Notes: generated from the letters alone by a model not told the origin. 64,000 nucleotides of DNA from Candidatus Delongbacteria bacterium (GCA_963663545.1 OY760505.1:256001-320000); one strand, 5' to 3'; shown: positions 5,018-62,859, counted from the stretch's first letter. Numbers and translations are program-made.

Positions 5018-5040
5018 ACTCTTGCCGTGGACCCCTCAGA

Positions 5041-5538: not shown

Positions 5539-5729
5539 TCCATATCCTCGGCATCTGGTGTTGAGCGCGTCCAATGTAACAAAGCCCGTGACATCGAATC
5601 GGTCTCAATGCAAGGGGCGACCCGCGGGCCGCCCCAAAACCTTCTCCTGTTCAGGTTCATAAGCAGGAAAGGGTCTCCGCACCCGGCAGCACTGTCCGCC
5701 GGGAGTTTATCTTCTTCACGTCTATCGAA

Positions 5730-6140: not shown

Positions 6141-6259
6141 CGGATTCTCCTTTGCTGGCGCCACTGTTTCAGGCGCCCACGAAGCACAATGTACAAAGCC
6201 AGGCGAAGGCTGTCACGTCTATAACAGGTTGAATTTCGCCCGGCGGCGATATCACCGTG

Positions 6260-20960: not shown

Positions 20961-20996
20961 AGCTGGTCGTCGCGGGTTCGAGCCCCGTCGCTCGCT
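20924..20996 (+). tRNA. tRNA-Gly (anticodon CCC), CCA not encoded
   Basis: Acceptor stem GCGAGCG/CGCTCGC, D-arm, anticodon stem CCAGC-TTCCCAA-GCTGG, T-arm with GGTTCGAG. Confidence 0.96.
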
Positions 20997-40300: not shown

Positions 40301-42436
40301 GGCAGACACACTGGCCTGTGCCTGCGGCTCGATCTGCGATTGCGTGGCTTGCTGCGGCGCAGACTGTGTTGCCTGCTGCGGCTCCGTCGGCACGGCCAAT
40401 GGCTCAACGGCACCTCGTGTCACGGACGCGGCTGTCGATTCGCCAGATGCACCAGCCTGAACATGCTGCACGATCTTCGATTGCGCAGCTAGTTGCGGCG
40501 CAGAGTGGGTTGCCTGCTGCGGCTCCGTCGGCACGGCCAATGGCTCAACGGCACCTCGTGTCACGGACGCGGCTGTCGATTCGCCAGACACGTTTGCCTG
40601 GTCCTGCTGCGCGATCTGCGATTGCGCGGCTTGTTGCGGCGTAGGTTGGGTTGCCTGCTGCGGCTCCGTCGGCACGGTCGTTGGATCAGCGGCAACTCGT
40701 GTCACAGGCATTGAAGTCGATTCGCCTGACACGCTTGTCTGGGCCTGGGTCTCGATCTGCGATTGCGTGGCGTTTTGCGGCGCAGAGTGAGTTGCCTGTT
40801 GCGGCTCCGTCGGCGCAGCCAACGGCTCAGCGGCACCTCGTGTCACAGACGCGGCTGTCGATTCGGCAGACACGCTTGCCTGGTCCTGCTGCGCGATCTG
40901 CGATTGCGCGGCTTGTTGCGGCGTAGGTTGGGTTGCCTGCTGCGGCTCCGTCGGCACGGTCGTTGGATCAGCGGCAACTCGTGTCACAGGCATTGAAGTC
41001 GATTCGGCAGACACACTGGCCTGTGCCTGCGGCTCGATCTGCGACTGCATGGATTGCTGCGGCGCAGAGTGAATTGCCTGCTGCGACTCCGTCGGCGAGG
41101 ACAACGGCTCAGCGCCAACTCGTGTCACGGGCGTGGAAGTCGACTCGCCAGATGCACCAGCCTGAACATGCTGCACGATCTTCGATTGCGCAGCTTGTTG
41201 CGGCGTAGATTGGGTCGCCTGCTGCGGCTCCGTCGGCACGGTCGTTGGATCAGCGGCAACTCGTGTCACGGGCGCAGTGGCAGACTCACTAGAGGCGACG
41301 GCCTGTGTCTGTGTCTGTGTCGTTGCTCGCGGTTGCGGCGCAGGCTGCGCACTAGCAGTCGCGATCTCCTGTCTTGCCATTTGCGGCATCGCAACTGCAT
41401 CTGGCCGACTTGTTGAACGGGAAGCAGAATCGCCGTCAAGCTGTGACACGTGCGTTGGCGAAGTTTCTGCAGCCCCAGCCCGCACGGCAGGATTCACAGG
41501 CTCCCGCGAGATCGTGGTCGACTCTTTCGTAAAGACATCGCTTGTCCGATAGCGAATCTGCGCGCTACGCTCGCGCTGCCAGTCCTCCAACGCATCGGCC
41601 TCGTCCTGGAGCTGTTTGAAAGCAAGCACGCCCGATTCTTCGTCAGCGGAAGAGGCTTCGGTCTCGGCACTGGAGTGTGTCACAGCTTCTGCAGGCGATT
41701 CGCTTGTCCTCGGGACATCTGCACTTGTCTGCAGCGTATCACCGGCTTGCGACCGGTCCTGCCGGGTCAAGGTCTGAGCAAGACTCTGCTTCTGAGTCTG
41801 CTGCTGTGCCAACGGTTCCGTCTTCAGCAGCTGCACTTCAGGCCGTGCTTCTGCTGTAGCACGTGGCAGGTTCACGGGAGCTGCATCACCGCGCTGGTAT
41901 TCGTCCGGAGCAGCAACACCACTCATCGAGTCGTTGGCAGCTTCCTCGCCGGTCTTTTTGGCTAGGACGTCAACGCCCTCAGTCGCAGGGCGCGAAGTGG
42001 TGTTTGAGGAGACACTCCACAGCAGTGTGCCTGCCGCATCGGACGATGGTTCCTGCAGCAACTCATGGCTAGGCTCGGATTCATCTTCGCTACCGAAAGA
42101 TGGTGCGAGGGAAGCGTCGACAGCCTTTCGTGACACGGGCTCATCCTGAATCAGCCACTCCTCCAGTAGTTCGCTGGCGCGTGATACGCCGACCGCCGGT
42201 CGTTGCGTGATCAACTGAGAAGTCTGCTCAGGCAGGCTCGAGTTTTTTGTCTTCTCTGCCGATTGATACTGCGCCAGCGCAGCAGCAAAGCTCGTGGCTT
42301 TCCCGCCCTCCTGACTGCGCAGTTCGGCAAGCAGCTGCTCCAACTGGCGACCGGGTGACGCAGAGACGCCTGTACCGGCTTGTTCGCCGGTAGCAAAAAA
42401 GAAGAAACTGCTCTGCGAGTCGACCCTGCCCTGCAT
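34349..42436 (-). CDS. fliK: Flagellar hook-length control protein FliK, giant, with a central 47-aa repeat
   Basis: Lies just upstream of flgD; C-terminal Flg_hook domain (LNPAQLGRIRLQL…LNELREQLQRSGI); ATG after AGGAG; uninterrupted frame. Confidence 0.88.
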   Translation of the reverse strand: MQGRVDSQSSFFFFATGEQAGTGVSASPGRQLEQLLAELRSQEGGKATSFAAALAQYQSAEKTKNSSLPEQTSQLITQRPAVGVSRASELLEEWLIQDEPVSRKAVDASLAPSFGSEDESEPSHELLQEPSSDAAGTLLWSVSSNTTSRPATEGVDVLAKKTGEEAANDSMSGVAAPDEYQRGDAAPVNLPRATAEARPEVQLLKTEPLAQQQTQKQSLAQTLTRQDRSQAGDTLQTSADVPRTSESPAEAVTHSSAETEASSADEESGVLAFKQLQDEADALEDWQRERSAQIRYRTSDVFTKESTTISREPVNPAVRAGAAETSPTHVSQLDGDSASRSTSRPDAVAMPQMARQEIATASAQPAPQPRATTQTQTQAVASSESATAPVTRVAADPTTVPTEPQQATQSTPQQAAQSKIVQHVQAGASGESTSTPVTRVGAEPLSSPTESQQAIHSAPQQSMQSQIEPQAQASVSAESTSMPVTRVAADPTTVPTEPQQATQPTPQQAAQSQIAQQDQASVSAESTAASVTRGAAEPLAAPTEPQQATHSAPQNATQSQIETQAQTSVSGESTSMPVTRVAADPTTVPTEPQQATQPTPQQAAQSQIAQQDQANVSGESTAASVTRGAVEPLAVPTEPQQATHSAPQLAAQSKIVQHVQAGASGESTAASVTRGAVEPLAVPTEPQQATQSAPQQATQSQIEPQAQASVSAVSTAAPVTRVGAEPMAVPTEPQQATQPTPQLAAQSKIVQHVQAGASGESTASPVTRVAVEPMAAPTEPQQATHSAPQHATQSQIAQQVQASVPSESASAPVTRVAVEPLAVPTEPLQATHSAPQNATQSKIMQHVQAGASGESTSAPVTGVAVEPLVAPTEPQQATQPTPQLAAQSKIVQQVQASVPGESTSAPVTRVATEPVAVLSEPLQATHSAPQQSTQSKIEPQAQASVSGESTAAPVTRVAVEPLAVSTEPQQATHSAPQHATQSKIEPQAQASVPSESASAPVTRVAAEPLAAPTEPQQAPHSAPQQAAQSQIAQQAQASVPGESTAAPVTRVAAEPMAVPTEPQQAPHSAPQHAAQSQIEPQAQASMSGESTSTPVTRVVAEPLVVPTEPQQAIHSAPQQAAQSKIAQQVQAGASGDSTAVPVTRGAAEPLAVPTEPLQATHSAPQQAAQSKIAPQVRASVSGESTSMPVTRVAADPTTVPTEPQQATHSAPQHATQSQITQQVQASVPSESASAPLTRVAVEPMAAPTEPQQATHSAPQHAAQSQIEPQVQAHVPGESTAVPMTRVAAEPLVSPTEPQHATQSQIAQQVQASVPGESTAAPVTRAAVEPLGVPTEPQQAPHSAPQQAAQSQIAQQVQASVPGESTAAPVTRVVVESTVVSTEPQQATHSAPQQAAQSQIAQQVQASVPGESTSAPVTRVNAEPMAAPTEPQQATHSAPQHATKSQITQHVLAGASGESTSAPVTRVNAEPMAAPTEPQQATHSAPQHATKSQITQHVLAGASGESTSTPVTRVGAEPLASPTESQQAIHSAPQQAAQSQIAQQVQSSVSGESTAAPVTRVVAESTVVSTEPQQATHSAPQQSTQSKIEPQAQASVPGESTAAPVTRAAVEPLGVPTEPQQAPHSAPQQAAQSQIAQQVQASVPGESTAAPVTRVVVESTVVSTEPQQAIHSAPPHAAQSQIEPQVQARVPGESTSAPVTRVAAEPLAVQTEPQQATHSAPQHAAQSQIEPQAQTSVSGDSTAALVTRVAVEPVAAPTQPQQATQSAPQQTAQSQIAQQDQANVSGESTAVSVTRVAVEPSVVSTDPQQATHSAPQQAAQSKIVQHVQAGASGESTSTPVTRVGVEPMAVPTEPQQATHSAPQQAAQSQIVPQAQTSVSGDSTAALVTRVAVEPVAAPTQPQQATQSAPQQAAQSKIVQHVQAGASGESTSTPVTRVGVEPMAVPTEPQQATHSAPQQAAQSQIVPQAQTSVSGDSTAALVTRVAVEPVAAPTQPQQATQSAPQQAAQSQIVPQAQTSVSGDSTAALVTRVAAEPLAVPTEPQQATHSAPQQSTQSQIAPQAQASVSAESTAAPVTRVAADPTTVPTEPQHATQSAPQQAAQSQIAPQAQASVSAESTAAPVTRVAADPTTVPTEPQHATQSAPQQAAQSQIAQQVQAGASGDSTSTPVTRVAAEPLVVPTEPQQAIHSAPQHATQSQIEPQAQASVPGESTSTPVTRVAADPTTVPTELQPQTVTPPQTQAIADMESAPTPVTRIVAEPTTLPIEPQSQSATPSEPQQMTQAQDSPSDDSTSVKATGNPDEFQSSVGTQTATSSLIHDELRPDAVRWANQTGNRSTAHTEWTVPELDIARSAEEVEGAESATRPATMSEELSLQKSATSLVAAPEPTPTQSAQISQRPISALLQDMDVLIAVSREGMMRSAEMAGVVNSLQTTSFGNRLDSGDGGVKANSRDTSVTQNERDSVLSQGEGSRLRREMDRVFGATDAERQQQEDNSQKQARDLPSVKRQAAEMPVADVTKVVWNASTSGLQRVRFDSSDGQGTAQTMDSRSLSTEESAEQRRQVIANMERLSARMRLMQYSGRREALMELNPAQLGRIRLQLSEQQGEVSLRVIAESHAGRDTVREGLNELREQLQRSGIRLDQVELAVQDESARRQQTGSQSGQEQGQSRPEEVGVKQGDADFASEMAAFGEETLR
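35720..41330 (-). repeat. ~40 tandem 141-bp (47-aa) repeats inside fliK
   Basis: Unit of type PVTRVAAEPLAVPTEPQQATHSAPQQAAQSQIAQQVQASVPGESTAA; one shortened 39-aa unit; copy number estimated as span/141. Confidence 0.95.
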
Positions 42437-42445
42437 GGGCAACTC

Positions 42446-49730: not shown

Positions 49731-51126
49731 GATAGGGGGGCGTGCTTGCCCCCCTATGGAATTTGTTTCCCCCCGCTCAAATCGGTATCGGTGCCGACCC
49801 TGCGGGTCGGATCGCTATCGGTATCGAGGCATTGCCGTGCAGCCAGCCGTATGTATCCTATGGACGAAGGCGTGCTACTCTGTGGAACGACGCTGACAGC
49901 TGAGTTCATTTGCACGACTTCGTCGAGGTCACGTGCGCAGCGCGTGACACGCCTAGCGGCGGGGCTCTCGTCTGCGACGCAGCGAAAGAGCACCGCCGAC
50001 GCGGTGCAGGACCTACTTTTCTTTGTCGCAACAAAGAAAAGTAGGGCAAAAGAAAATGCTCGGGCTCTCCGACCCGAGGACGCTTGTCCGCTGGACAACC
50101 GCCGCGGGCGGGTACCATATGCTTGCAGCAGGGCTACGCTCATGTGTTCACACCTTCGGTGTTCACTTATGGCCTTACGGCCATTTGGGTGTGTCTGCTA
50201 TAGGGATGAGTGGCTGTATGGTTGAAGAATCGGGGCCGATTCTTCAGCCTCTTCTGACGGGAAGCCCAGTGTACACTATGGACGAAGACCCGCAATTTAG
50301 CGGAGTTGCAAATACGGTCGCACGAGATGCGGGGCTTCGTCGAGGTGCTGACCGCATAGCGGGCAGCACACCTGTATGGCTGAAGAATCGGCAGCCGATT
50401 CTTCGGCTTCTCTTCGACAGGAAGCCATTGTACACTGTGGGCGAAGACGTGCAGTTTCGTAGCGATGAGATTGCAGCAATTCATGATGCACGGGTTCGCC
50501 GAGGTGTTTTGCGAAGCAAAACACACGCGGGCGGGCACCATTTGATGGCTGAGGGGCTACGCTCATGTGTTCACAACGTAGGGCAGAATTCGCAAAGCGG
50601 ATTCTGCGAGCGACTTGACCCGAAGCAAAGCTAAGGGGCAAGTCGACGTTCACCTCTGGCCTAACGGCCATCTGGGTGAGCTGGCTTAGGGGTAGAGTGG
50701 CTGTATGGCTGAAGAATCGGCAGCCGATTCTTCGCCTTCTCTTCGACAGGAAGCCATTGTACACTGTGGGCGAAGACGTGCAGTTTCGTAGCGATGAGAT
50801 TGCAGCAATTCATGATGCACTGGTTCGCCGAGGTGTTTTGCGAAGCAAAACACACGCGGGCGGGTACCATTTATTGGCTTCTGGGCTACGCTCATTTGTT
50901 CACACCTTCGGTGTTCACTCTTGGCCTAACGGCCATCTGGGTGAGCTGGCTTAGGGGTAGAGTGGCTGTATGGCTGAAGAATCGGCAGCCGATTCTTCGG
51001 CTTCTCTTCGACAGCAATCATTGAAGGCCAGGAGGAGATTTCTCGCGAATTCGCAGAGCGGCGCAAGCGGCTCAAACTGAATGCGAGGAATCTCCGAGGT
51101 GTCGAGCACGTCGTGCTCGACACACG
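49731..51126. repeat. Left mosaic hairpin element (non-coding, with internal direct repeats)
   Basis: Hairpins gaagaatcggcagccgattcttc, gtgttttgcgaagcaaaacac, gcagaattcgcaaagcggattctgc, tactttctttg-type; ~200-bp duplication (about 50373 and 50700) and ~90-bp duplication (about 50657 and 50922). Confidence 0.85.
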
Positions 51127-51129
51127 AGT

Positions 51130-51534
51130 TCAATGCTTGAGCAGTTGCTTCAAATCGATGGTGCTTGCAGGGAAAGCGGCAAGCAGACCTTTGTCGGACG
51201 TGAAGAGGGGCACTTCCAGGCGCCGGGCCAGGGTAAGAAACTCGCAGTCGTAGGCCGGGCACGCGGATTCGTCGACACAGGAAAGCACATCAGCCGAGGC
51301 AGGCTCGTACTCCCCGCCGCTCATCAGTTCTTCCGCCTCCGTCATGAGTTGCAGAGCGGCACTTCTGCTTAGCTGACCGCCGCGCATGTACTGCGCAAGT
51401 ACGTTGCGGAACTCGCTGCGCCACAGCAGGGGAGCAAGCCAGTGGGAATCGCGCATGAACAGGGCTTCCGCATGAGGTGTGTACTCGCCCTCAATCAGCA
51501 GATAGGCAATCACATTGGTGTCCACGACAATCAT
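51130..51534 (-). CDS. vapC: PIN-domain VapC-type toxin
   Basis: IVVDTNV, SEFRNVL, AYDCEF, LFTSDK. Confidence 0.9.
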   Translation of the reverse strand: MIVVDTNVIAYLLIEGEYTPHAEALFMRDSHWLAPLLWRSEFRNVLAQYMRGGQLSRSAALQLMTEAEELMSGGEYEPASADVLSCVDESACPAYDCEFLTLARRLEVPLFTSDKGLLAAFPASTIDLKQLLKH

Positions 51535-51773
51535 GAGCGCCCCTGCGTACGCGCCTGGTCCAGTAGCTCCTGGGTCAATGCGGGCAGTTTGCGCCGACTA
51601 CGAGCGGCCGCCAGACGCTCGAGCAGCTCGTGCCTGCCCGAGGGACACGACCCCAGCGATGTGCTCAAGCGGTATAAGATTTCTCCTGCAATGCTGCGGT
51701 AGTTGGCTTGGGCACTGAATCTGATCCTCTCATACAAATCGTCGGGAATGTTCTTCAAGGTGATGGCTGGCAT
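51531..51773 (-). CDS. Ribbon-helix-helix (Arc/FitA-like) antitoxin
   Basis: MPAITLKNIPDDLYERIR…A..N.RS…EI; ATGA overlap with the toxin gene. Confidence 0.85.
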   Translation of the reverse strand: MPAITLKNIPDDLYERIRFSAQANYRSIAGEILYRLSTSLGSCPSGRHELLERLAAARSRRKLPALTQELLDQARTQGRS

Positions 51774-52703: not shown

Positions 52704-54977
52704 TCAGTCGAAAGATGCATGAACTCTGAAAAACTGCCGGGGCCACGTGTGGGAATCTAAACTGAAAGTTGTATCGGCTGTAACTTCAGCTAGCAAGCCC
52801 CATTCCTCAAAAGGAGCATATGAATCAACGGAGCTATAGATTTTATAGCCTGCGGCATACTGAACTGGATGCCAAGAGATTCTTAGACCAGTTGAGTCCT
52901 GCGAGGTGAAACTAAGTGTCGGGGCGTCTGAAAGCGAGTGTGGAAAAATCTCATCATGTAACTCGTTCAACCATGGCGTGAAATTACAGCTTCCGGAAAA
53001 GAGGTGAATCCCATCTGCAATGGAGGATGAATCCGTTGTGCCCCAATACATGAAGCCGAGATCCAGCTCAGCGGCATTGTTGTGGTAAACATTAAAGAGC
53101 CCGTTTGAATGAATATCGTTCCATTCAGAAACCGCTCCACCACCGTTCAACCCGCTGCTCTCGTTGTACAAATAGACACCATGAGTGCCATTATCAACTA
53201 TGTAACAGTTTATCAATGTCGGAGTGGAGTTTGGCCCCACATAGATCCCCGCTGTCTCGCTGTATCTGACTAAGCAGTTTGCGAAAGTGACTTCGTGGGA
53301 AGTTGACAGTCGGACACAACCAGTCGAAGAACCCGCATATTCAATTACACAGTCGGAACATCTGCAAGTTGACATCCCAAATGAATTATTAAACTGGATA
53401 CCCTTCCAATCACCGGGAGCAGGCGTTTCGCTATTTGAAGTGAAAACTATTGGTTCAAACTCGCTACCAATTGCCAGTAATGATCCCTGAGCATTTAAAA
53501 GATAATCGCCATTGAACCTAAGTGTGCACCCGGGCGCAATCTCCAGACTATCACCCGCCTGAACAAGTAAATCATCATCAATGATGTATGGAACATTGTA
53601 GTTATTCCAATATCCGCGACAACCATCTCCTTCGACTACTAGAATACCCTGAAAGGCATTATCATGCAAATTGAGCGGACCTGTGATGTTTGAAACACTT
53701 ACAGCCTCTAAAATTATCGGATAATCATCACAGTCCATGATTTCGCAATTATTCATTTCGACTTCGCAATCTATACCCAAACATATACCTGGACCAGAGC
53801 ATTCGCCTATTACACAATCATCGAAACATGCACGCGAGCTACTTATTGAAAACCCTCCGTACAAAGAAAACTGAATGTTGGAATTGCTAATGTTAACATT
53901 GCCCTGGGAAACTCTGACTGATCCGTTGGAGCTTGAACCGGCGTAGAAAATATCACAGAAGTTTAACCTTGAATCCCGTGAACCTGGATTGAAGGTAAAA
54001 CCGGCCCAATCACCTGCCGCTGGTGATTCATTATCAGAAGTGAAAGTAATCCTGGCTTCAGGTGTGCCTTCCGCAATTAGGGTTCCCGCAACGTTGACTG
54101 AAGCCGGATTAGTTGATACACCAGAAAGCCGTATGATATTGCCTGGATCAATTATTAATGTATCACCTCCTGCAATGCTAACAGATGCGTTTTGTATAAC
54201 ATACGGAACGCCAAAACTTGCCCAGCGCCCCTCAGTTAAACCATTTGCAGTAACAAGGATTGCATCTGTTGCATTTCCATAGATTTCCATGTCTCCGGTA
54301 ATTTCATTCACTCCAGATGCTGATGTCTCAATAGGGTACCCGCCGTTGTTGATAATGGTGCAGTCATTTATGTATGGTTCGGAATAGTAAACGCTTGTAC
54401 CTCTACAGATAACGCCGCCTGCTGCATTATTCCGTATCACGCAGTTCGTAATGGATGCATTATGGACTGTACTAGGCGTGCCGGTGTGAGCCGCGATTTG
54501 TATTCCATATGATGATGAATGCTGAATCGTGCTGTTGGCAATGAGTTTGTTGTCATCGTCGCCGATAACATAGATACCGCTACTCCCAGCATAAGAAATG
54601 TCGCAATAGTCGAATATCACACTATCTGAAGTTGTAGAGTAGAAGCCATTCCAATCTCCAGGATTTGGATTGGGAGAACTGGAGGTGAAGATAATCCGCT
54701 GAGTTAGAGTTCCGATTGCCTGAAGTGACCCGTGTATATAGACTGTTATCCTAAATTGTGCCTCAGCATCAAACTGAACATAGCATCCTGGTAAAATGAT
54801 CAGCGTTGCTCCCGTTCCGATCGTTAATCCTGCCCAGACAACATGTGGATTATCAGCTGGCGACCACACCTCATCCTCAAACAAATGACCGGAATGATAG
54901 GTTTGGGCCGATAGTGTAAGAGGCAAGAAAAGCAGACTCAGTATAACAACTAATTGCTGGACACAAATGCGATTCAT
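52704..54977 (-). CDS. Secreted right-handed parallel beta-helix repeat protein (cassette)
   Basis: Signal peptide; three internal repeats (I.FTS…P.PGDW.G..F, C.I.YAG); AT-richer than the host genes. Confidence 0.8.
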   Translation of the reverse strand: MNRICVQQLVVILSLLFLPLTLSAQTYHSGHLFEDEVWSPADNPHVVWAGLTIGTGATLIILPGCYVQFDAEAQFRITVYIHGSLQAIGTLTQRIIFTSSSPNPNPGDWNGFYSTTSDSVIFDYCDISYAGSSGIYVIGDDDNKLIANSTIQHSSSYGIQIAAHTGTPSTVHNASITNCVIRNNAAGGVICRGTSVYYSEPYINDCTIINNGGYPIETSASGVNEITGDMEIYGNATDAILVTANGLTEGRWASFGVPYVIQNASVSIAGGDTLIIDPGNIIRLSGVSTNPASVNVAGTLIAEGTPEARITFTSDNESPAAGDWAGFTFNPGSRDSRLNFCDIFYAGSSSNGSVRVSQGNVNISNSNIQFSLYGGFSISSSRACFDDCVIGECSGPGICLGIDCEVEMNNCEIMDCDDYPIILEAVSVSNITGPLNLHDNAFQGILVVEGDGCRGYWNNYNVPYIIDDDLLVQAGDSLEIAPGCTLRFNGDYLLNAQGSLLAIGSEFEPIVFTSNSETPAPGDWKGIQFNNSFGMSTCRCSDCVIEYAGSSTGCVRLSTSHEVTFANCLVRYSETAGIYVGPNSTPTLINCYIVDNGTHGVYLYNESSGLNGGGAVSEWNDIHSNGLFNVYHNNAAELDLGFMYWGTTDSSSIADGIHLFSGSCNFTPWLNELHDEIFPHSLSDAPTLSFTSQDSTGLRISWHPVQYAAGYKIYSSVDSYAPFEEWGLLAEVTADTTFSLDSHTWPRQFFRVHASFD

Positions 54978-55172
54978 TTGGACACTCCCTGAGATAGACG
55001 AAAATTGAGAACACTGCAATTCCCAGACCTACGCCATCTCCATATGAATAACAATTGTTTACTGCCGTAATCTGTTTAATTGGAAGACCCAAAATGTACA
55101 TTTTCGTTCACCGTATATAGGTATGTAAATGATATTTCACTGGTATTCTTTGATTGCGGATTCTGCTTCTCT

Positions 55173-55247
55173 GCCTAACGGCGAGCATGAACCGCGTCGT
55201 GAAGGCCGTCGGCGGCCTTCACGTCGCGTTCCATGCTCTTGTTAGCT
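55173..55247 (-). mobile_element. Integron attC site
   Basis: GCCTAAC…GTTAGCT with internal palindrome gagcatg…gtgaaggccg/cggccttcac…catgctc; the TAA of the upstream gene lies inside R''. Confidence 0.9.
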
Positions 55248-57290
55248 GTCCGTCTTCTTCTCCGCAATTGCACATAGCCAAGGAATGCTCTTACTTCCTC
55301 TCTCCTCAATCTCTCGCGCTATCTTCCTGACGAGGAACCCGTTCCTCTCAAGCACTCCAGTGAGAGAGCCGAAAGTATGAAATTGAAAAAAGCGTCCGCC
55401 GAGCCCCTCTTCAGTATCAAGAAAAGACAGACCATCTCCCTCTTTCGTCATCACAAAAAGGAGTCCGTGCGGTCGAAGAACGCGGTTGGATTCCGCCAAA
55501 GCTGCATCAGCCATAACTCCTTTTGCGATCACAGGCAAATGAAGAAGGGAAGCATTCTGCCTAACGACATCGAATGACTCCCCCTCGAAGTGGGAAAGAT
55601 CACGCATGTCGCATTCGACCACGCTTCCGTCAGTAAGAATACCAACTTGGATTTTATCCTCAATCATCCTGACAAAGGCAGGGCACTTCTCGATTCCCAC
55701 TGCGTCGATCTTTAACACGTTTTGAGCGTAATCGAGATCGCGACCGTTACCCGTCGCCACGTCAAGGATCCGGGGGCGTTCGAGCCCAAGGGCAGAGGCA
55801 CAGTGCGACAACATTTCACGCCACAGCCTCTTGTCCAAATCGTGAGGCTCCGTCCAGCGTATCTCCGCGTAACGATTAGCTCCGCAATCGTATGTTGATA
55901 CTGTCAGGTCAATCAATCGCTCTGCAAGAGCTACTGCGGCGCTCTGCGCGGCATGCCTGTCAGCGGGGTGACATTCGGTTATGCCTTGCAGAAGGTTCGC
56001 GAGTTCCGCTGTCATGTCATAACCAGATGTCATGTTTCGTCTCCTTATTGTATCCATGATCGTAGATGTCGTGTGTTCTCTTCCGTCGACTTCCGGTGTC
56101 TCCCGGAAAAGCCCCCAATATGCGCACTCCCTGGGACCCAATTTGAACAGGACGGGTGGTGACTCTCGGGCACTCAGCCCCGAGATCCGCTCACTCATTG
56201 TGCGGGCCACAACAAAAGCGTTGTATAGCGGAATATCCAGGATTCCGTGTACTAGCTCAAACGCACGGCATCCCTTAATCAAGGCGAGGTCAGCGAGGCG
56301 CACGAGGCCGCGCACCTCTGGCGATAGCTTGGTCCAGTTCAGGGCGGCCAGCGAAGGACCACTGGCAGTCCAAAAGAAGCGACCAGTGGCCGACAAGCCC
56401 CGCAGTTCACGGTATGGCGGAAGATGGAGAATCTGCAGTAGCTGCTGCAAACTGAGGTCATTACCATATTCTGCCCTTTTCGGCACCACGCACACGCTGG
56501 TGTGCCTCGCGTGACGGAGAAGCTCTTGGACAACCAGCAAGTCGAAGAACGACTCTATCACATCATCGGTGAACCACAGCACCAGTGCGGAGTGACCGAA
56601 GTCCTCAACAAACGCCTCAAACTCGAAGAGTGGTGTTGGGTGCAGGGCGCGTGATATGAGCTGTTCCAGGTAGCGCTCCGCGTCCTCGTCCGTGAGAGGT
56701 CTACCAACGTAGTCGGCGAGTGGTATGCCCACATCGCGAACAGTGGAGGCCGCGCTCGAGGCTCCCTTTAGATCGAGGCCAGAACACCCTGCTGCAATAG
56801 CCAATCGAACGAACTCCGAAAGGTCATGTTGGCCCGCCTCGCGCAATCGAAGAACGACGCGCGGAAGCAAGTCAAAGGCAAGGCGGTTGAACTCCGCATG
56901 GGAAGGCTTGGTCTCGTAGCCGTCGCGTAGAGCTGTGGCCCGCACAACCCGGCAGACTACATCCGGAATCTCTTGATTCCAGAGGGAGCGCGCGAGGATC
57001 CTTCCCCGGTGGGACAGGGCCAGAAACCGCTTCAGTTCGGCTATGCACGCGTCGGATAGGCGATGTGTCTCTTTCGAGCCGATCCCAGGGATGCACCGGT
57101 TGATGTACTCAAGTACTTGATCGCGGATCCAGTCGTCGGCGGATGGCTCACTGTCACCAAGCTCGACGAGATGTGTGCGCCGGTCATGGAGAGTAAAGGA
57201 CATGGGCAAGACTTCCGCGCTATAGCTTCCAACCTCACTAACGTCGAAGAAAGGGAAGTCATCACCCAGGAGATCCGCGAGTTCATCCAT
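55242..57290 (-). CDS. ARMT1/DUF89-like domain fused to a class I SAM-dependent methyltransferase
   Basis: DUF89-like FTDDVIESFFD, YGND, IKGCRAFE; C-terminal ILDVATGNG, CDMRDL, SFDVV..NASLLHL, RVLRPHG. ATG overlaps the upstream stop (ATGGATGA). Confidence 0.7.
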   Translation of the reverse strand: MDELADLLGDDFPFFDVSEVGSYSAEVLPMSFTLHDRRTHLVELGDSEPSADDWIRDQVLEYINRCIPGIGSKETHRLSDACIAELKRFLALSHRGRILARSLWNQEIPDVVCRVVRATALRDGYETKPSHAEFNRLAFDLLPRVVLRLREAGQHDLSEFVRLAIAAGCSGLDLKGASSAASTVRDVGIPLADYVGRPLTDEDAERYLEQLISRALHPTPLFEFEAFVEDFGHSALVLWFTDDVIESFFDLLVVQELLRHARHTSVCVVPKRAEYGNDLSLQQLLQILHLPPYRELRGLSATGRFFWTASGPSLAALNWTKLSPEVRGLVRLADLALIKGCRAFELVHGILDIPLYNAFVVARTMSERISGLSARESPPVLFKLGPRECAYWGLFRETPEVDGREHTTSTIMDTIRRRNMTSGYDMTAELANLLQGITECHPADRHAAQSAAVALAERLIDLTVSTYDCGANRYAEIRWTEPHDLDKRLWREMLSHCASALGLERPRILDVATGNGRDLDYAQNVLKIDAVGIEKCPAFVRMIEDKIQVGILTDGSVVECDMRDLSHFEGESFDVVRQNASLLHLPVIAKGVMADAALAESNRVLRPHGLLFVMTKEGDGLSFLDTEEGLGGRFFQFHTFGSLTGVLERNGFLVRKIAREIEERGSKSIPWLCAIAEKKTDS

Positions 57291-58131
57291 TGTCTTGATC
57301 CCCATCGTCCTTCATCTGATCACCATTGCCTTGATCCCACAGGTGGTCGAAATACGTGTTCAGCTTCGCGTATCCATGAGATCCCTTTCGAAAGACGATC
57401 ATCGGCAACCTCACTGGTGCGTCGCAGGAGAGGATGTTCGGCGAGAAGTAGCACCTATCGCTGAAAATGATGCATGTGCAGTACGGAGCTTGCATGTAGA
57501 AGCGATGGCTTATGGGGTGTTTGGAGAATGTCCGGTTCAAGTTGCCGATAGAGGCGACGGTGCTCTGTATGTCGATTGCGATTAGGGGCTCCTTCTCAAA
57601 CTCAGGGGTCTCAATTCTGGCCCGGTTGGTGGTCTCTGGCGCTTCTGGATGGGACAAGAGTGCCTTGACTGACACTGCTCCCGTCTCCTCGCTGAGTGAA
57701 CATATCTTGTAGATTGATCTGTAAAATGGGCCTGTTTGATTGAAGAAAACCCGAAGGGAAACTCCCACAAGCTTCACCTCGCCAGTAGTTGCATTGTCGA
57801 ATGCCGATTTAAGCGATATGAACGCGTTGTCAGGATACTCGTTCTGTTCGCGATCCTTGTAGACCCGGATGATGCCACCCTCCGCCAAATCCCGGAAAGC
57901 GGTCCAAATCGTGTCGGCGTCCTCCCGCTGCTTCACATGGTCGTAGAAGAAGCCCACCAAGAGGGGAAAGAGGATGCATGATCCCACCTGCGCGACAAGA
58001 AGAAGGACAATGGCCTTGAGAAGGCTTACGCTTGTCAACTGAGTGTTGAAGAGGGGGATCAGTAGGGAGATCGAGACGAGAAGGGATGAAACGGTTACCC
58101 AGAAGATGAACCAGTATCGCGTTTGCTTCAT
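57283..58131 (-). CDS. 2-TM membrane protein with a DUF5919/PLD-fold-like cytoplasmic domain
   Basis: Two N-terminal TMs; VKLVGVSL, VKALLSHP…RARIE, FY..AP…IIFSD..YFSP, YFDHLW pattern; start ATG just after attC. Confidence 0.6.
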   Translation of the reverse strand: MKQTRYWFIFWVTVSSLLVSISLLIPLFNTQLTSVSLLKAIVLLLVAQVGSCILFPLLVGFFYDHVKQREDADTIWTAFRDLAEGGIIRVYKDREQNEYPDNAFISLKSAFDNATTGEVKLVGVSLRVFFNQTGPFYRSIYKICSLSEETGAVSVKALLSHPEAPETTNRARIETPEFEKEPLIAIDIQSTVASIGNLNRTFSKHPISHRFYMQAPYCTCIIFSDRCYFSPNILSCDAPVRLPMIVFRKGSHGYAKLNTYFDHLWDQGNGDQMKDDGDQDNG

Positions 58132-58146
58132 TGTATGTTTCCCCAC

Positions 58147-58274
58147 AGCTAACGTGGTGTCCAGTGGGTGGGCGTCGAATCGCGACAGCCGACCAGAGAA
58201 CGAAATTTGTTGAGTGAAGACAGTGGTTAACAAAGGCGCGCTGTCGCCTGATCCACTGCAACACATGGTTAGCC
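58147..58274 (-). mobile_element. Integron attC site
   Basis: AGCTAAC…GTTAGCC; arms gtggtgtccagtgg/ccactgcaacacat, gcgacagc/gctgtcgc. Confidence 0.85.
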
Positions 58275-58275
58275 A

Positions 58276-58929
58276 TCATGCAGAAGGCAAAGTAAGTTTG
58301 TTAAGCTTTTCTACAAACGAGGAGGCTGAAGACCAGAAGAAGTCAGCGACTTCGTCAGCGAAATAATGCCAATTACTTCCCTCCTCTATGTGTCTTGATT
58401 CTAGAAGACCTTTCTTCAACAGGAAGTCCTCGACCTTTTTGTAGCCGCCGGAAAACTCTTCTTCCCAGAAGCCCCCAACGGCTGGTGGAAAGCACAGTTT
58501 ATAGCCAACCGCCCGACCGTGAGCAATGACATTCCTGAAATAGAACAACGTCTTTACGTTTTCCCAAAGCGCTGGATCACCGATGGTTTCGCTGGCTTTT
58601 TTTCCAACAACTAGCGAAAAGACTTCATCGTAGTTTTCGCTTCCGGTTGTTTTGGCAACGCGAAGACGAAGATCGTCTATAAGGCGCTTGTATAGAGGTA
58701 GAGAGTGTTCGCCACCTGTATTGATGTTCTTAATCAGGATGCGTTCGAAGTTGCCTTCGATAAAGTATGCAGAAGCAAGAATGATGGAATAGTTTATTCC
58801 CGATCGGATCGCCTCCGAGAGGTCTGGAGATGTTCTTTGCGTCGTTTGCCATTCAATCCACGGTGGGATGCACTCGAAGACATGAAAAGATTCGTGCGCT
58901 ACCGACCAGTTGCTAGGAGTAGATGCCAT
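58276..58929 (-). CDS. Hypothetical cassette protein with a HEPN-like RxxxxH motif
   Basis: Helical protein, IILASAYFIEG…FRNVIAHG; bounded by attC sites. Confidence 0.6.
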   Translation of the reverse strand: MASTPSNWSVAHESFHVFECIPPWIEWQTTQRTSPDLSEAIRSGINYSIILASAYFIEGNFERILIKNINTGGEHSLPLYKRLIDDLRLRVAKTTGSENYDEVFSLVVGKKASETIGDPALWENVKTLFYFRNVIAHGRAVGYKLCFPPAVGGFWEEEFSGGYKKVEDFLLKKGLLESRHIEEGSNWHYFADEVADFFWSSASSFVEKLNKLTLPSA

Positions 58930-58942
58930 GATTCCCTCTAAG

Positions 58943-59005
58943 GGCTAACGCTGCTTTTCAGCGGGCGCAGGCTTTTTGCGATCCTCTGCAAAAGCCTTGT
59001 TAGAT
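58943..59005 (-). mobile_element. Integron attC site
   Basis: GGCTAAC…GTTAGAT; arms gcttttcag/ctgcaaaagc with an extrahelical base. Confidence 0.88.
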
Positions 59006-59008
59006 TTA

Positions 59009-60394
59009 TCATCTCCTAATTTCCCGTATTATCCCTGGTATGTCTGAATGTTCGTTAACCCAAATCACAGAAACACCGAGTTTATTGAATGTTGACTCCT
59101 CTAACCCTCTAAACACGTTAGATATCTTATTTATGTCTCCAATATTTTTCAGACTTTTATTAGGTTTCCAGTGGTCTTTTAGGATTGCGTAATGGCGTAC
59201 CCCAGGTCTCTTTCTATGAGATATCTCCAATAATCTGCGTAAATTTGGATCGGTCATGCTTAAGCCCACAAAAAGACAAACATTATTTCTGAGTAAATTC
59301 AATTGTGTAATGTTTGTCCAGGCGTAAGGATCATTAAACTGAGAATGGTATGCCTCTTCACTTAATACCAATGATTCTCGGTATTTAGTGTTCAATTTCC
59401 CCTTAAAGGGAAGAAAACCATGGGGATGGAATACAGGTAGCTCGTTTTTAGATGGAATATCACCTTCAGAAACAATTACATAATAATCAACAGACCTCTT
59501 CTGCAGTTCAATTTCTAAAATTTCATCGTAGTTGTATGTTACTAACCCGACCAAGCCTTGGCGCTTTCTTCCTGGCACACACAAAGCGCCAATCTCTTCG
59601 ACTAATTCAGAGCTTTTTGTGGAATCAAAATTTAAATAAAGACTTCTTCTAACATACTCTGGAAAATTATTGCCCAAGCTGTCTCTCAAAATTCTAGCAG
59701 TTATCAAAGGGGATGCAGGAATTTCAGATTTGAAATAATTCACTAAAGAGCCTTTGCTACTCTTTAAACTTTTGAACGCAGGGTTTTTTCCAACAAGTGA
59801 TATAGATAAACTATTTAGCAGACTTTCCCATGATGGGAGCCCCGATGCCAATGATATTCCGGCACCAAGAAATAAAACTAATTGGTCCTCAAGATATGCA
59901 GACTTAAGTGAAGCTAAGTTCTGTTTTGTAATTGCATTTACATCTCGGTCCTCAAATATCTCTACTGCTTGGTTTAAATATTTTCTATCGTAAGTGAATG
60001 CGGCTTCAGGATTTTGCGAGGATAATCGCTCTACCTCTTCTTTTCCGTAGATTTCTATGACATTATTAGGAAACCGATCATGCAAATTGGCTTTTAATTT
60101 ATTCAGGCGAGAGGAACTCTGATTTGTAACTAAAAGGATGCTTGCAAAATTATAGTTGGTTCTAAATGACCTGTCTATTACTTTTCTCAAGCTTTCCCAT
60201 GATGCTAAATACTTAATCTCAATTACACATGGCCCCGGCAAATTTAAAATTCCGTCTGGTGCGATTGCATTGAACCCATAGTCCGAACCTGTTTCAGGGC
60301 CGGCGAGAAGTATCTTATTTTCTTTTCGGGATACTGCCCTAAGTATATTAAGAACATAACTTTCAAATTGGAAAGCGTGCAAAATATCTTGCAT
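59009..60394 (-). CDS. Restriction-endonuclease-like domain fused to a SIR2-like domain (cassette)
   Basis: N-terminal FE…GFNAIAPDG…VIEIK; SIR2: LFLGAGISLASGLPSW, VTYNYD, HPHG, LFVGLSMTDPNL. Start reassigned to the ATG after GAGGTG, downstream of attC. Confidence 0.82.
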   Translation of the reverse strand: MQDILHAFQFESYVLNILRAVSRKENKILLAGPETGSDYGFNAIAPDGILNLPGPCVIEIKYLASWESLRKVIDRSFRTNYNFASILLVTNQSSSRLNKLKANLHDRFPNNVIEIYGKEEVERLSSQNPEAAFTYDRKYLNQAVEIFEDRDVNAITKQNLASLKSAYLEDQLVLFLGAGISLASGLPSWESLLNSLSISLVGKNPAFKSLKSSKGSLVNYFKSEIPASPLITARILRDSLGNNFPEYVRRSLYLNFDSTKSSELVEEIGALCVPGRKRQGLVGLVTYNYDEILEIELQKRSVDYYVIVSEGDIPSKNELPVFHPHGFLPFKGKLNTKYRESLVLSEEAYHSQFNDPYAWTNITQLNLLRNNVCLFVGLSMTDPNLRRLLEISHRKRPGVRHYAILKDHWKPNKSLKNIGDINKISNVFRGLEESTFNKLGVSVIWVNEHSDIPGIIREIRR

Positions 60395-60420
60395 TCCTAT
60401 CACCTCTATCATTTCACGAA

Positions 60421-60506
60421 ATCTAACGTTTGGGCTCAGGGGCGTCAAAAAGCGGAGCGAGGAACGAGCGCAGCTTTTTGACGTCCCTTTGAGCCCATTG
60501 TTATGC
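60421..60506 (-). mobile_element. Integron attC site
   Basis: ATCTAAC…GTTATGC; tgggctca/tgagccca, gcgtcaaaaagc/gctttttgacgt; TAA of the upstream gene inside R''. Confidence 0.92.
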
Positions 60507-61454
60507 AAATTCTATTTCTTGGTGTCGTTTTAGCCAGCTTATAATCTCTGTTTGATCTCGAAGGTCTAGGCGCCATTGATGGTGCTCCTTTGCTTGTTGC
60601 TGAGCTGCCGAAGTGAAGCGACTGGTAGTTGCAATCATTCCCATAGTTGCCCTGAACTCTTCATTTACCCAATACATTACATTTCTTACTATCGATATAT
60701 CCACGGGATTACTTTGTGAGTGTCTTTTGCACTCCACGATTAATTTCACCGGTACACCCTCAATAAACTTGGACGATACAGCAATTATATCAGGACCTGG
60801 TGCATTGTTTCGTTTTACTAAATCAACAGCCCATCCATCTGCTTTAAGCAATTCGGCCACCATATTCTCAAAATCGCGTGGTGATACTATTTCCAACTCT
60901 TCAGGGTGCTCAATTAAATATTTAATATCCTTTTTTGTAATTTTAGACAGGAGTATTACAGAAGTTTCATCTCCTTCAAAAGCAGGCTCTTTTATATGCT
61001 TTAGTGCGAGGATTACTTGCTTTTTGAACTCAGCCTTGCTGTCGTAGCTGCTAATAACTCTTGACTCGGCAATCTTACCAAGTAGCGCACCGTAACTTGG
61101 ACGGTTATCTATTGCGTGCTTCGTAGATATTAAACCAGAGCGCCGTATAAAAAAGAAAACAGGCTTCCCAAAACTTTCCGCCAATTGAGTTTCAAATATA
61201 ACTCCAGGAACATTAACGTCATGTACCATCGTCCCCATTCTTGTTCCCAGAATGGTTAACACCGCGTCACATTGTTGAATAGAGCGGTTTAGGATTTCTT
61301 GAACAGTGAGTGTGGTAGCTGGAAAATATTCCCACATTACCGGAATGTGGCCAGCCGATAATATCGCATCTCTTGCGATTTCCCGTTCTTCCGCCATTTC
61401 AGACGTAGAACTGATGAAGATTCTCATTCCATTTCGGCTCTGGTTTTCATGCAT
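60501..61454 (-). CDS. DUF4062 domain fused to an Mrr-like restriction endonuclease (first cassette)
   Basis: RIFISSTS…EERE…CDAVLTILGTRMG…E…A…KPV; C-terminal PRDFENMVAELL, GPDIIA, IVECKR, GMIATTSRFT. Alternative start at 61427. Confidence 0.82.
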   Translation of the reverse strand: MHENQSRNGMRIFISSTSEMAEEREIARDAILSAGHIPVMWEYFPATTLTVQEILNRSIQQCDAVLTILGTRMGTMVHDVNVPGVIFETQLAESFGKPVFFFIRRSGLISTKHAIDNRPSYGALLGKIAESRVISSYDSKAEFKKQVILALKHIKEPAFEGDETSVILLSKITKKDIKYLIEHPEELEIVSPRDFENMVAELLKADGWAVDLVKRNNAPGPDIIAVSSKFIEGVPVKLIVECKRHSQSNPVDISIVRNVMYWVNEEFRATMGMIATTSRFTSAAQQQAKEHHQWRLDLRDQTEIISWLKRHQEIEFA

Positions 61455-61861: not shown

Positions 61862-62820
61862 GCGCACTCGACACCGTCGACTAGACTTCGGACCTCGCAC
61901 ATCGTCTAGTCGTTCGACGAAGCCGTGCTTCAGGTCTTTGCCATCTGCGCCTCGCTGCGAATATGCACGGCTTCAGTCCGTGTGTGTCCCGCGCTTTCAC
62001 GCGTGACTCCTCGGAGACTTCTCGCATTCGGTTTGAGCCGCTTGCGCCGCTCTGCGAATTCGCGAGAAATCTCCTCCTGGCCTTCAACGATTGCTGTCGA
62101 AGAGAAGACGAAGAATCGGCTGCCGATTCTTCAGCCATGCAGCCATCCTACCCAACAGCAAGCCCACCGAAATGGCCGCAAGGCCAGAGGTGAACGTCGA
62201 CTTACCCCTTAGCTTTGCTTCGGGTCAAGTCGCTCGCAGAATCCGCTTTGCGAATTCTGCCCTTCGGCGTGAACCAATGAGCGCTGCCCTCCAGCCATCA
62301 AATGGTGCCCTGCCCGCGTGTGTTTTGCTTCGCAAAACACCTCGACGAAGCCCCGCGCAAAACGTACCCGTACATGAAACTCCAGCCAATTGCGGGTCTT
62401 CGTCCATAGGATACAATGGGTTCCTACCGATGAAAGGATGAGACATGTCCCCTGCAGCCAGCCGTCTGTGAACGTCGACTTTGCTCGCAAAGTCGATCCG
62501 TCGACTTTGCCAAGCAAAGTCGATCGTGAACTCGTTAGCGTATCCCAAGGCATCAGCCATGCCCGACCAGGCGTCCTCGACGAGTCGTCGAGGGCCTCTG
62601 GGCGGGCGAGCGTTTTCTTTGCGCCACTTTCTTTGACGCGACAAAGAAAGTGGCATCTTCTTCGCTTAGCGCCAGCGTAAGCCCCGCGCCAGCGGCAAAG
62701 AGAGGACATCAGCCGAAAGGCAGCGCCTCGATACCGATTCGACTCCGATAGGAGTCGGCACCGATCCCGATACCGATACCGACTCAAGAAAATGGTGCAG
62801 AAGGGGCGCCCATCCCCTTG
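61862..62820. repeat. Right mosaic hairpin element, an inverted relative of 49731-51126
   Basis: Reverse-complement matches: 62005-62140 to about 50965-51100, 62170-62345 to about 50500-50675, 62610-62655 to about 50012-50060, 62729-62783 to about 49780-49830. Confidence 0.88.
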
Positions 62821-62859
62821 CTTTTTGCCCAGCAAAACCTGTTCTTTTGTTCACCTTTT

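Follow-up and report, generated by a model that had tools for sequence, protein, structure and literature searches.

A mobile two-gene cassette from a Candidatus Delongbacteria bacterium couples an HKD-less PLD-fold membrane protein to a phosphatase-methyltransferase: a candidate conflict module

The present analysis concerns a two-gene integron-type cassette in a stretch of 64,000 nucleotides (nt) from a Candidatus Delongbacteria bacterium (GCA_963663545.1 OY760505.1:256001-320000). This whole stretch, hereafter the window, is a piece of bacterial chromosome with about 60% G+C, and positions are counted from its first letter. Gene 1 (57283..58131, minus strand) encodes a protein of 282 amino acids (aa) with a membrane anchor of two helices, a long stalk helix and a phospholipase D (PLD)-fold domain without the HKD motif. 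Gene 2 (55242..57305, minus strand) encodes a 687-aa protein in which a DUF89/ARMT1-like phosphatase domain is fused to a class I S-adenosylmethionine (SAM) methyltransferase. The cassette had been noticed in a preliminary description made from the DNA alone, and that observation was confirmed here. It is most safely described as a mobile, self-contained module whose phosphatase and methyltransferase would act on a phosphorylated small molecule, and whose de-catalysed PLD-fold membrane protein would bind the same or a related molecule. The pair is probably an undescribed module for sensing and editing such a molecule, possibly for defence. Because both protein families occur fused to TIR domains, gene 1 has the fold of a sensor domain, the layout resembles that of signal-activated effectors and the neighbouring cassettes are defence-like, our tentative preference is to read the cassette as a conflict (defence-type) module, in which a ligand-gated membrane effector is accompanied by a ligand-editing enzyme.

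The cassette is closed on its 3' side by an attC-like site at 55173-55247 (minus strand), with R'' AGCTAAC at 55241-55247 and R' GTTAGGC at 55173-55179. The TAA stop of gene 2 lies inside this R'', and the crossover after the G of GTT is expected between 55179 and 55178. The site forms a long hairpin with paired R boxes and single-base bulges in the stem; its fold reached z = -9.2 on one strand and -7.3 on the other, and none of 200 shuffles was as good. On this side, the similarity to the related locus L001 ends at the stop codon. A second attC-like site, which would belong to the preceding cassette, is located upstream at 58147-58274 (minus strand; R'' GGCTAAC at 58268-58274, R' GTTAGCT at 58147-58153), with its R'' directly after the stop of the preceding open reading frame (ORF). 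Its fold is modest (z = -2.3 and -2.4; 4 and 2 of 200 shuffles as good), and R'' and R' are paired in the fold of lowest energy. With this site the two-gene cassette would start at 58152. The sequence TTAGCTGT immediately 5' of the start codon is conserved in the upstream alignment with L001; this is the position at which an attC crossover would put the cassette start. At the equivalent position L001 carries a better-folding site (z = -3.5, two bulged bases). A shorter alternative for the upstream site, 58225-58274, was rejected as unstructured (z = +0.2; 108 of 200 shuffles as good). Hence, of the two flanking attC sites claimed in the preliminary description, the downstream one is strong and the upstream one moderate, and the limits given there, 55173 and 58274, are the exact outer edges of both sites. 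A 3' attC site is therefore present, whereas neither an adjoining integrase nor attI was found within the window. Since no integrase domain was detected among the 54 window ORFs scanned with Pfam, the visible array is an attC cluster without an integrase.

The two genes overlap. The gene 1 ORF spans 58266..57283, and its conserved start is the ATG at 58131, because the L001 orthologue has the same start and the 5' extension enters the attC-like site. The octamer ATGGATGA at 57283-57290 (minus strand) contains the TGA stop of gene 1. This stop/start overlap was found as previously described, but a gene 2 start further upstream is more likely, namely the in-frame ATG at 57305, 15 nt upstream of the ATG in ATGGATGA. 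The upstream ATG is favoured because it is preceded by AAGGA at a distance of 5 nt, and because L001 has an ATG there and none at the second position. With this start the overlap is 23 nt (57283..57305, minus strand) and includes ATGGATGA; it is 19 nt in L001, and in the related locus L003 the genes do not overlap and lie about 18 nt apart. Base composition also sets the two genes together: their G+C contents of 0.52 and 0.55 (0.66 and 0.60 at third positions) are alike and differ from those of all neighbours.

The N-terminal part of gene 1 is a transmembrane hairpin (residues 1-62; 57946..58131, minus strand), as indicated by hydropathy and by the model helices. Its two hydrophobic segments have their centres near residues 15-26 and 37-54. 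A hydrophobic N-terminus is shared by all 48 aligned homologues and is resolved as two peaks in 27 of them. In the AlphaFold2 model (mean predicted local distance difference test score 90.4; predicted template-modelling (TM) score 0.74), helices 2-28 and 37-84 make up the membrane hairpin and stalk, and an alpha/beta domain occupies residues 87-267. The positively charged N-terminal residues, together with the need for cytoplasmic partners, suggest that this domain faces the cytoplasm. The PLD-fold assignment of residues 85-267 (57331..57879, minus strand) comes from the 48-sequence alignment, the model, and Foldseek searches against the PDB and BFVD. With residues from about 87 to 267, TrmBL2 was the best match (E 1e-6). 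Next came three nucleases of the PLD family (Nuc, NucT and Zucchini) together with FAM83, which is non-catalytic, and then PLD3 and poxvirus F13; from TrmBL2 to PLD3 the E values ranged from 1e-6 to 1e-4. Almost all of the 58 PDB matches at E <= 1e-3 were PLD-fold proteins, and the viral (BFVD) structure matches likewise. For the regulator matches the query-normalised TM scores were low (0.33-0.38) because the hairpin was included in the query. Sequence and profile searches of the PDB with the gene 1 family gave nothing below E 0.3, and no match to the family was found in Pfam, NCBIfam or PADLOC.

The catalytic motif of the PLD superfamily is HxK(x)4D. Its HxK part is absent from gene 1, and the stretch that would correspond to it reads Y217-C218-T219, which is invariant in the 48 sequences. 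Sixteen columns of the alignment are invariant in total (G86, R94, G123, L126, R127, V128, F129, F130, L158, R170, E174, Y217, C218, T219, N232 and L234). The elements Y217-C-T219, D225 and S230-P-N232 lie on two consecutive model strands (218-222 and 226-231). The fold is shared with Nuc, NucT and Zucchini (target-normalised TM 0.51-0.61), which are likewise built on a single-copy domain that would need to dimerise, and the Ser-x-Asn after the second strand of such single-domain nucleases is kept as S230 and N232. In contrast to them, the gene 1 family has Tyr217 and Thr219 in place of the catalytic His and Lys and is membrane-anchored. A PLD fold without HKD that is joined to an output module is also seen in the C-terminal domain of TrmBL2/TrmB and in HTH-DUF5919 proteins, but the output of gene 1 is a membrane hairpin and not a DNA-binding domain. 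DUF5919 had been named in the preliminary description, together with the two transmembrane segments and the loss of HKD. The segments, the fold and the missing motif were all recovered by hydropathy, the model and Foldseek, while Pfam DUF5919 (PF19319) matched none of the 48 family members at E <= 1, the only hits being spurious ones to membrane proteins. It is only from a look-up of the homologue P0069 in the Atlas that a DUF5919 link emerges, as a lead and not a test: clusters carrying DUF5919 came up at 0.95 by features and at TM 0.59-0.69 by structure, including HTH-DUF5919 regulators and a CAP12/PCTIR-TIR cluster with DUF5919 in 11% of its members. The confident model, TrmBL2 as the best match, 16 invariant columns in spite of the missing HKD, the P0069 look-up and a TIR fusion of the domain in P0266 (see below) all point to a sensor-like domain. 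The family comprises at least 112 clusters at E <= 1e-3 and occurs in both Bacteria and Archaea, from Streptomyces, Methanothrix, Dehalococcoidia and Zixibacteria to many metagenomes.

As for gene 2, Pfam assigned ARMT1-like_dom (PF01937) to residues 139-358 with 31.7 bits (cut-off 25) and Methyltransf_11 to residues 514-618 (E 2.6e-10). The ARMT1-like module, with an N-terminal helical extension, covers residues 1-454 (55944..57305, minus strand), and its conserved residues are N110-Q111-E112, D178, K180, D247, D248, E251, D255, N282, D283, K344, G345 and E350. The motifs D247-D248-x-x-E251-x-x-x-D255, N282-D283 and K344-G345...E350 are each kept in 42-44 of 44 aligned relatives, and D247, D248, E251, D255, D283, K344, G345 and E350 in all 44 (alignment of 49 sequences). 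These motifs and the methyltransferase had been listed in the preliminary description, and both are borne out. The family profile matched the DUF89 structures 2g8l (E 2e-11) and 2ffj (5e-5), with the T-D-D...E...D, N-D and K-G...E elements aligned to their motifs; according to the accessible part of PMC9062747, the nucleophilic Asp and the residues that bind metal and phosphate are found at these positions. Gene 2 thus shares the nucleophile, the second metal-binding Asp and the Lys-Gly...Glu element with the DUF89/ARMT1-like damage-control phosphatases (PH1575, 2g8l; AF1104, 2ffj; yeast and fission-yeast Duf89), as far as that source describes them. The sole change in the motif set is the metal-binding Asn beside the nucleophile, which is Asp248 in all 44 relatives. 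Gene 2 further differs from these phosphatases in its long N-terminal extension, its fused methyltransferase and its linkage to a membrane protein, and its relatives are linked to TIR, PNP and HIT. The methyltransferase domain (residues 455-687; 55245..55943, minus strand) has motif I near D515/G519/G521; with these conserved SAM-motif residues it belongs to class I. A family-specific stretch, D630-T-E-E-G-L-G-G-R-F-F-Q641, is conserved as well. Its closest solved relatives are small-molecule methyltransferases, and an Atlas look-up of the gene 2 homologue P0123 returned generic methyltransferase clusters only (0.85). Judged by the catalytic residues kept in 44 of 44 relatives and by the alignment with 2g8l and 2ffj, gene 2 looks active. 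An exhaustive search with residues 1-490 gave 189 representatives at E <= 1e-3, of which 142 were at <=1e-10 and 42 at <=1e-30.

The contexts of gene 1 homologues were compared at 14 related loci from a scan of one genome per species, which together with the window make 15 places (tblastn, Pfam and NCBIfam). Most homologues are metagenomic, and the context counts cover these 15 places only. The same gene 1-gene 2 pair occurs in L001 and L003, and a split form in L011, where the ARMT1-like domain is a separate gene on the opposite strand. An ARMT1-like domain is thus present in 4 of 15 places (fused in the window, L001 and L003), and a methyltransferase orthologous to gene 2 residues 455-687 (36-70% identical) in 9 of 15 (window, L001-L006, L010 and L011); the identity is 36-40% to the free-standing methyltransferases beside gene 1 homologues. 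In the tree, window gene 1 groups with the proteins that have ARMT1-like partners (support 83/85), while the clade linked to the selenophosphate synthetase SelD stands apart (91/91); the L003 branch is not resolved, and the L001 protein is identical to P0008. The overlapping frames, the shared G+C, the recurrence in L001, L003 and L011 and the ARMT1-partnered clade indicate that the gene pair is a unit.

Elsewhere the gene 1 family moves in discrete blocks. A 2.0-kb block with only overlapping SelD and gene 1 homologue genes is found in four Streptomyces species (L007, L008, L009 and L012, about 4777-6777 in each), with 84-85% DNA identity in four different neighbourhoods. A five-gene block encodes SelD, the gene 1 homologue, a ROK-like (sugar-kinase-like) 425-aa protein, a methyltransferase and a nicotinamide mononucleotide (NMN)-adenylyltransferase-like protein (L004:4791-9278; also L005, L006, L010 and L002) in Streptomyces, Glycomyces and an acidobacterium; it measures 4.6-4.9 kb and is 80-90% identical among three Streptomyces species. 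No flanking similarity exists around either block, and such identity with unrelated flanks marks them as discrete, transferable modules. In line with the preliminary description, the pair is accordingly a real, conserved and mobile unit. At L004, the five-gene block has a Beta_protein/PD-Lambda-2_C homologue (2986-4107, E 1e-33) about 0.7 kb away on its upstream side and a DDE transposase (9427-10197) directly downstream. Homology of the ROK-like protein to the N-terminal domain of gene 2 was considered and rejected. Two distant loci, L013 and L014 (26-29% identity), carry a methyltransferase with an NDT-like (nucleoside-deoxyribosyltransferase-like) N-terminus, and their gene-1-type gene is preceded by a 525-542-aa protein with weak likeness to sugar-phosphate isomerases (L013:4374-7969, L014:3951-8012). 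In L014 the gene-1-type domain is fused to Metallophos (calcineurin-like phosphoesterase) and lacks membrane helices, and the methyltransferase gene comes after it. For the accessory proteins L011:4221-5672 and L013:4374-5951, no match by sequence was found in the PDB.

Both families are also joined to domains typical of conflict systems, of which a TIR fusion is the usual sign. A Pfam scan was made of 37 of the 150 listed relatives of the gene 2 N-terminal part, mostly picked for length, so that the fusion counts are not frequencies. TIR_2 stands at the N-terminus of 10 of these 37, and 6 of the 10 end with a methyltransferase. TIR, ARMT1-like and C-terminal methyltransferase domains are hence combined in single proteins of about 1000-1370 aa (P0198, P0210, P0214, P0217, P0227 and P0242), P0227 carrying Metallophos in addition. 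In P0191 a PNP_UDP_1 N-terminus replaces TIR and matches the PADLOC PN-superfamily effector model. HIT was found in 3 of 37, and single relatives contain Metallophos, NUDIX with PPDK, a metallo-beta-lactamase fold, guanylate kinase or MFS. Elsewhere, the ARMT1-like(-methyltransferase) module is thus coupled to effector-type domains. Its ARMT1-like part matched no PADLOC model in the 27 proteins scanned. On the gene 1 side, a search for longer relatives yielded a single protein, P0266 (543 aa), which combines a TIR/SEFIR domain (3-124) with a gene-1-type domain (358-536), the former replacing the membrane hairpin; the latter is 42% identical to gene 1 residues 79-266 and keeps the YCT and SPN motifs. 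The cassettes beside the gene pair are defence-like (SIR2_2 and DUF4062-Mrr), and abstracts of published papers report phage-defence genes carried by integron cassettes.

Under the conflict reading, gene 1 would sit in the inner membrane through its helical hairpin, with the N-terminus inside and the PLD-fold domain in the cytoplasm. That domain would serve as a ligand sensor, as in TrmB-type and HTH-DUF5919 regulators: its catalytic HKD is replaced (Y217-C218-T219 ... S230-P-N232), and the residues of a putative phosphate-binding pocket (R94, R127, R170, E174 and N232), which may hold a phospho-ligand, are invariant. The hairpin would be the output, causing membrane damage or depolarisation, presumably during phage infection. 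The DUF89-type aspartyl-phosphatase of gene 2 would strip the phosphate and its SAM methyltransferase would cap the product, so that gene 2 might make, or more likely destroy, the ligand of gene 1.

The layout finds counterparts among known systems. Effectors of CBASS, Pycsar and type II Thoeris are composed of a small N-terminal membrane module and a cytoplasmic ligand-binding domain, and are encoded beside an enzyme in a compact mobile operon. The gene pair matches this layout of membrane effectors but differs in that the cassette has no signal synthase, the sensor is PLD-like, the partner is a phosphatase-methyltransferase and no PADLOC model matches. A relation to MADS was also considered, because methyltransferases beside gene 1 homologues match PADLOC mad2 weakly (E 1e-6 to 1e-19). 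In the accessible part of bioRxiv 10.1101/2023.03.30.534895, mad2 is the DNA methylase of the eight-gene MADS, with N6-methyltransferase activity predicted. Membership in MADS was rejected: only the methyltransferase core aligns, gene 2 of the window has no mad2 match (E <= 0.01) and no other MADS parts are present. The ten mad2 matches among neighbouring ORFs are generic methyltransferase similarity; apart from one strong match in L004 (see below), the other PADLOC matches of these ORFs are weak or concern generic domains.

Several findings weigh against reading the cassette as a conflict module. Gene 2 is only distantly related to the TIR-bearing proteins (24-31% identity), and the TIR fusion of P0266 is one sequence on one 2.7-kb contig. 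Neither protein matched any family of PADLOC-DB v2.0.0 at E <= 0.01, in agreement with the earlier remark that the pair was not recognised as a named system. As to whether homologues lie near defence genes, a check proposed in the preliminary description, only 1 of the 116 neighbouring ORFs at the 14 related loci gave a strong PADLOC defence match, namely the PD-Lambda-2_C homologue of L004. The cassette, which consists of gene 1 and gene 2 only, holds no CD-NTase, cyclase or TIR, and plasmid and phage collections yielded no homologue in tblastn searches with both proteins. The earlier sensor/effector reading is accordingly supported in part, by the defence-like adjoining cassettes and the TIR fusions, and not by any known class of signal-making enzyme in the cassette. 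Moreover, conservation within the gene 1 family is strong, with a mean column identity of 39% and one Cys that never varies, and this would suit an enzyme no less than a sensor. The placing of the Y-C-T...S-P-N stretch at the HKD position, as a putative remnant of the HKD/GSxN element, was judged from sequence and strand pattern rather than from a superposition. The constant partner of gene 1 is the methyltransferase and not the ARMT1-like domain. Finally, SelD stands beside the gene 1 homologue in 9 of 15 places, mostly actinobacterial (L002, L004-L010 and L012), and the five SelD loci with kinase-like and NMN-adenylyltransferase-like proteins look like a biosynthetic or metabolic operon, a setting that the preliminary description had itself named as speaking against defence.

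Owing to this SelD linkage, a non-immune small-molecule pathway, possibly linked to selenium, is nearly as credible as the conflict reading, even if we regard it as somewhat doubtful. The gene 1 family would then be a membrane enzyme or carrier using a phosphate-like donor. In the actinobacterial clade the donor may be selenophosphate from the adjacent SelD, with Cys218 in an oxyanion pocket taking up selenium or sulfur and the methyltransferase methylating the product; the window cassette could be a derivative that does without SelD and has its DUF89 phosphatase provide or remove a phospho-intermediate. Detoxification, or a methylated chalcogen or sugar-phosphate metabolite, are possible roles. 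The SelD proteins are canonical: they score 222-293 bits on the TIGR00476 equivalog (cut-off 125), and six aligned sequences share an invariant G-C-x-x-K loop, whose Cys and Lys we take to be catalytic in E. coli SelD. SelD lies immediately upstream of, or overlaps, the gene 1 homologue, except in L002 where it is at the downstream end of the operon, and at four Streptomyces loci SelD and gene 1 stand alone. The other components also fit a pathway, that is, the ROK-like protein, the orthologous methyltransferase and the NMN-adenylyltransferase-like protein of the five-gene loci and the sugar-phosphate-isomerase-like protein, Metallophos fusion and NDT-like domains of the distant loci, and the weak methyltransferase matches include arsenite and selenoprotein methyltransferases. 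According to the accessible part of bioRxiv 10.1101/2022.04.13.486033, overlap with selD was the criterion behind the discovery of the selenoneine cluster senABC, and gene 1 homologues, which in 9 of 15 places either overlap selD or lie directly beside it, show the type of linkage that revealed senB. Unlike senABC, no SenA or SenB homologue occurs among the neighbours scanned, the window cassette lacks SelD and the other partner proteins differ. The selenium uses listed in the available text of a 2026 review (PMC13188914) are selenocysteine, selenouridine, the molybdenum cofactor, selenoneine and ovoselenol only; the five-gene block fits none of the pathways listed there, so that, by that list, another use would be new. 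On the other hand, tblastn with L004 SelD found no SelD in the 64-kb window, L001 (3.2 kb only), L003 (match at the contig end), L011, L013 or L014, and the SelD-linked gene 1 proteins form a clade apart from that of the window. TIR fusions of both families are hard to reconcile with plain metabolism, the catalytic His and Lys are absent from the PLD-fold domain and the cassette neighbours are defence-like.

A role in lipid head-group metabolism is improbable. Gene 1 would be a half-size, cardiolipin-synthase-like PLD enzyme acting as a dimer, and gene 2 would dephosphorylate and methylate the head group, altering the envelope. Classical head-group pathways do run from synthase to phosphatase to methyltransferase, and ClsA has an architecture comparable to that of gene 1, in which two N-terminal membrane helices precede a PLD-fold domain toward the membrane surface. 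Phosphoethanolamine N-methyltransferase is among the weak PDB matches of the methyltransferase, and the five-gene variant contains a CTP_transf_like enzyme. However, the catalytic His and Lys of HKD are replaced in 48 of 48 homologues, and in both the L014 fusion and P0266 the domain has no membrane helices. Structurally, the domain of gene 1 comes closest to a regulator domain that is not catalytic, and SelD is left without a role. More improbable still is an addiction (toxin-antitoxin-like) module, in which a membrane toxin (gene 1) and its neutraliser (gene 2) would stabilise the cassette array with no phage-defence or metabolic role. Chromosomal cassette arrays often contain toxin-antitoxin pairs, the two frames overlap within a mobile unit and a PIN/ribbon-helix-helix pair lies in the same island (51130-51773), but both proteins are far above the usual toxin-antitoxin size, gene 2 has retained both of its catalytic residue sets in full and the partners of gene 1 vary among non-homologous enzymes.

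The preferred reading, that of a conflict module, can be extended to the families as a whole, although we consider this extension rather unlikely in its entirety. The gene 1 family would be a new class of membrane receptor or effector whose de-catalysed PLD pocket reads a phosphate-type molecule. In the actinobacterial modules coupled to SelD this molecule would be selenophosphate or one of its derivatives, and in the window cassette it would be made or consumed by the ARMT1-like-methyltransferase protein. Together with it, the ARMT1-like-methyltransferase module would form an undescribed immune class with swappable effectors, namely TIR, nucleoside phosphorylase, or the two-helix membrane PLD protein acting in trans.

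The cassette lies in an island of lower and patchy G+C at about 51-62 kb, with all island genes on the minus strand; a flagellar gene cluster extends to 49.6 kb of the window. The island is a G+C mosaic in which each unit has its own composition. The G+C and third-position G+C are 0.38 and 0.35 for the SIR2_2 gene, 0.41 and 0.36 for DUF4062-Mrr, 0.47 and 0.49 for a 217-aa ORF and 0.45 and 0.41 for a beta-helix gene, compared with 0.60-0.64 and about 0.80 for core genes. The DUF4062-Mrr_cat protein (60501-61454) and the 499-aa SIR2_2 protein (59009-60508) form a minus-strand unit (59009-61454) with an 8-nt overlap, and an attC-like site is located 3' of the SIR2_2 gene at 58943-59005 (fold z = -2.6; 3 of 200 shuffles as good). 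The SIR2_2 protein weakly matches ThsA, LmuA and Dsr1 in PADLOC and DUF4062-Mrr weakly matches PDC-S02; this unit resembles a separate defence cassette. The 217-aa ORF (58276-58929, minus strand) is a unit of its own between two attC-like sites and had no match in Pfam, NCBIfam, PADLOC or PDB sequences. On the other side, a 771-aa protein with right-handed beta-helix repeats (Beta_helix, NosD; 52704-55019, minus strand) adjoins the cassette, and no attC-like site was recognised 3' of its gene. At the left edge of the island, the PIN-domain and ribbon-helix-helix (FitA-like) genes have overlapping frames (51130-51773, minus strand) and are likely a toxin-antitoxin pair.

The island is flanked by inverted non-coding repeats at 49817-51103 and 62005-62738, which are 78-95% complementary. 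Tandem duplication of units of about 265-330 nt has enlarged the left repeat, which contains many short palindromes. Neither repeat matched Rfam, and a coding nature was rejected, as the ORFs 62209-62835 and 50023-50634 have only the repeated DNA in common. The upstream side of the array leads into non-coding repeats and an imuB-like gene. Across the window, tRNA-Gly at 20924-20996 was the sole match of the Rfam and tRNA scans, and a promoter and terminator scan of 54900-59200 gave no more sites than shuffled sequences. In the flagellar cluster, just upstream of flgD, there is a 2697-aa ORF (34349-42442, minus strand) within which a 141-nt (47-aa) unit is repeated in tandem about 39 times at 35746-41277. 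The C-terminal part of its product shows a match to the hook-length control protein FliK (2rrl, E 2.5e-4), and the whole would be a giant molecular-ruler protein.

No description of the gene pair was found in print, with subscription journals and closed supplements outside the coverage of the search, and none was found of DUF5919, or of DUF89 together with a TIR domain and a methyltransferase. Titles and abstracts, which made up most of the DUF89-phage literature consulted, describe no such system, the matches including DUF891 and a study of the fission-yeast enzyme. For ARMT1 with TIR, the accessible part of one preprint treats an ARMT1-like phosphatase in a metal-cofactor context only, and "damage-control phosphatase" with "defense system" led to unrelated papers only.

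If the cassette is a defence system, it would add an HKD-less PLD sensor fold and a DUF89 phosphatase/methyltransferase chemistry that no described system uses, and it would explain the TIR-ARMT1-like-methyltransferase proteins that have no assigned function. If instead the selenium link is the key, the gene 1 family would mark a further use of selenophosphate beyond selenocysteine, selenouridine, the molybdenum cofactor, selenoneine and ovoselenol. In both cases the gene 1 family, which is widespread and highly conserved but has no Pfam model, is now characterised by its fold, its conserved pocket and its partners, through which it can be tested.

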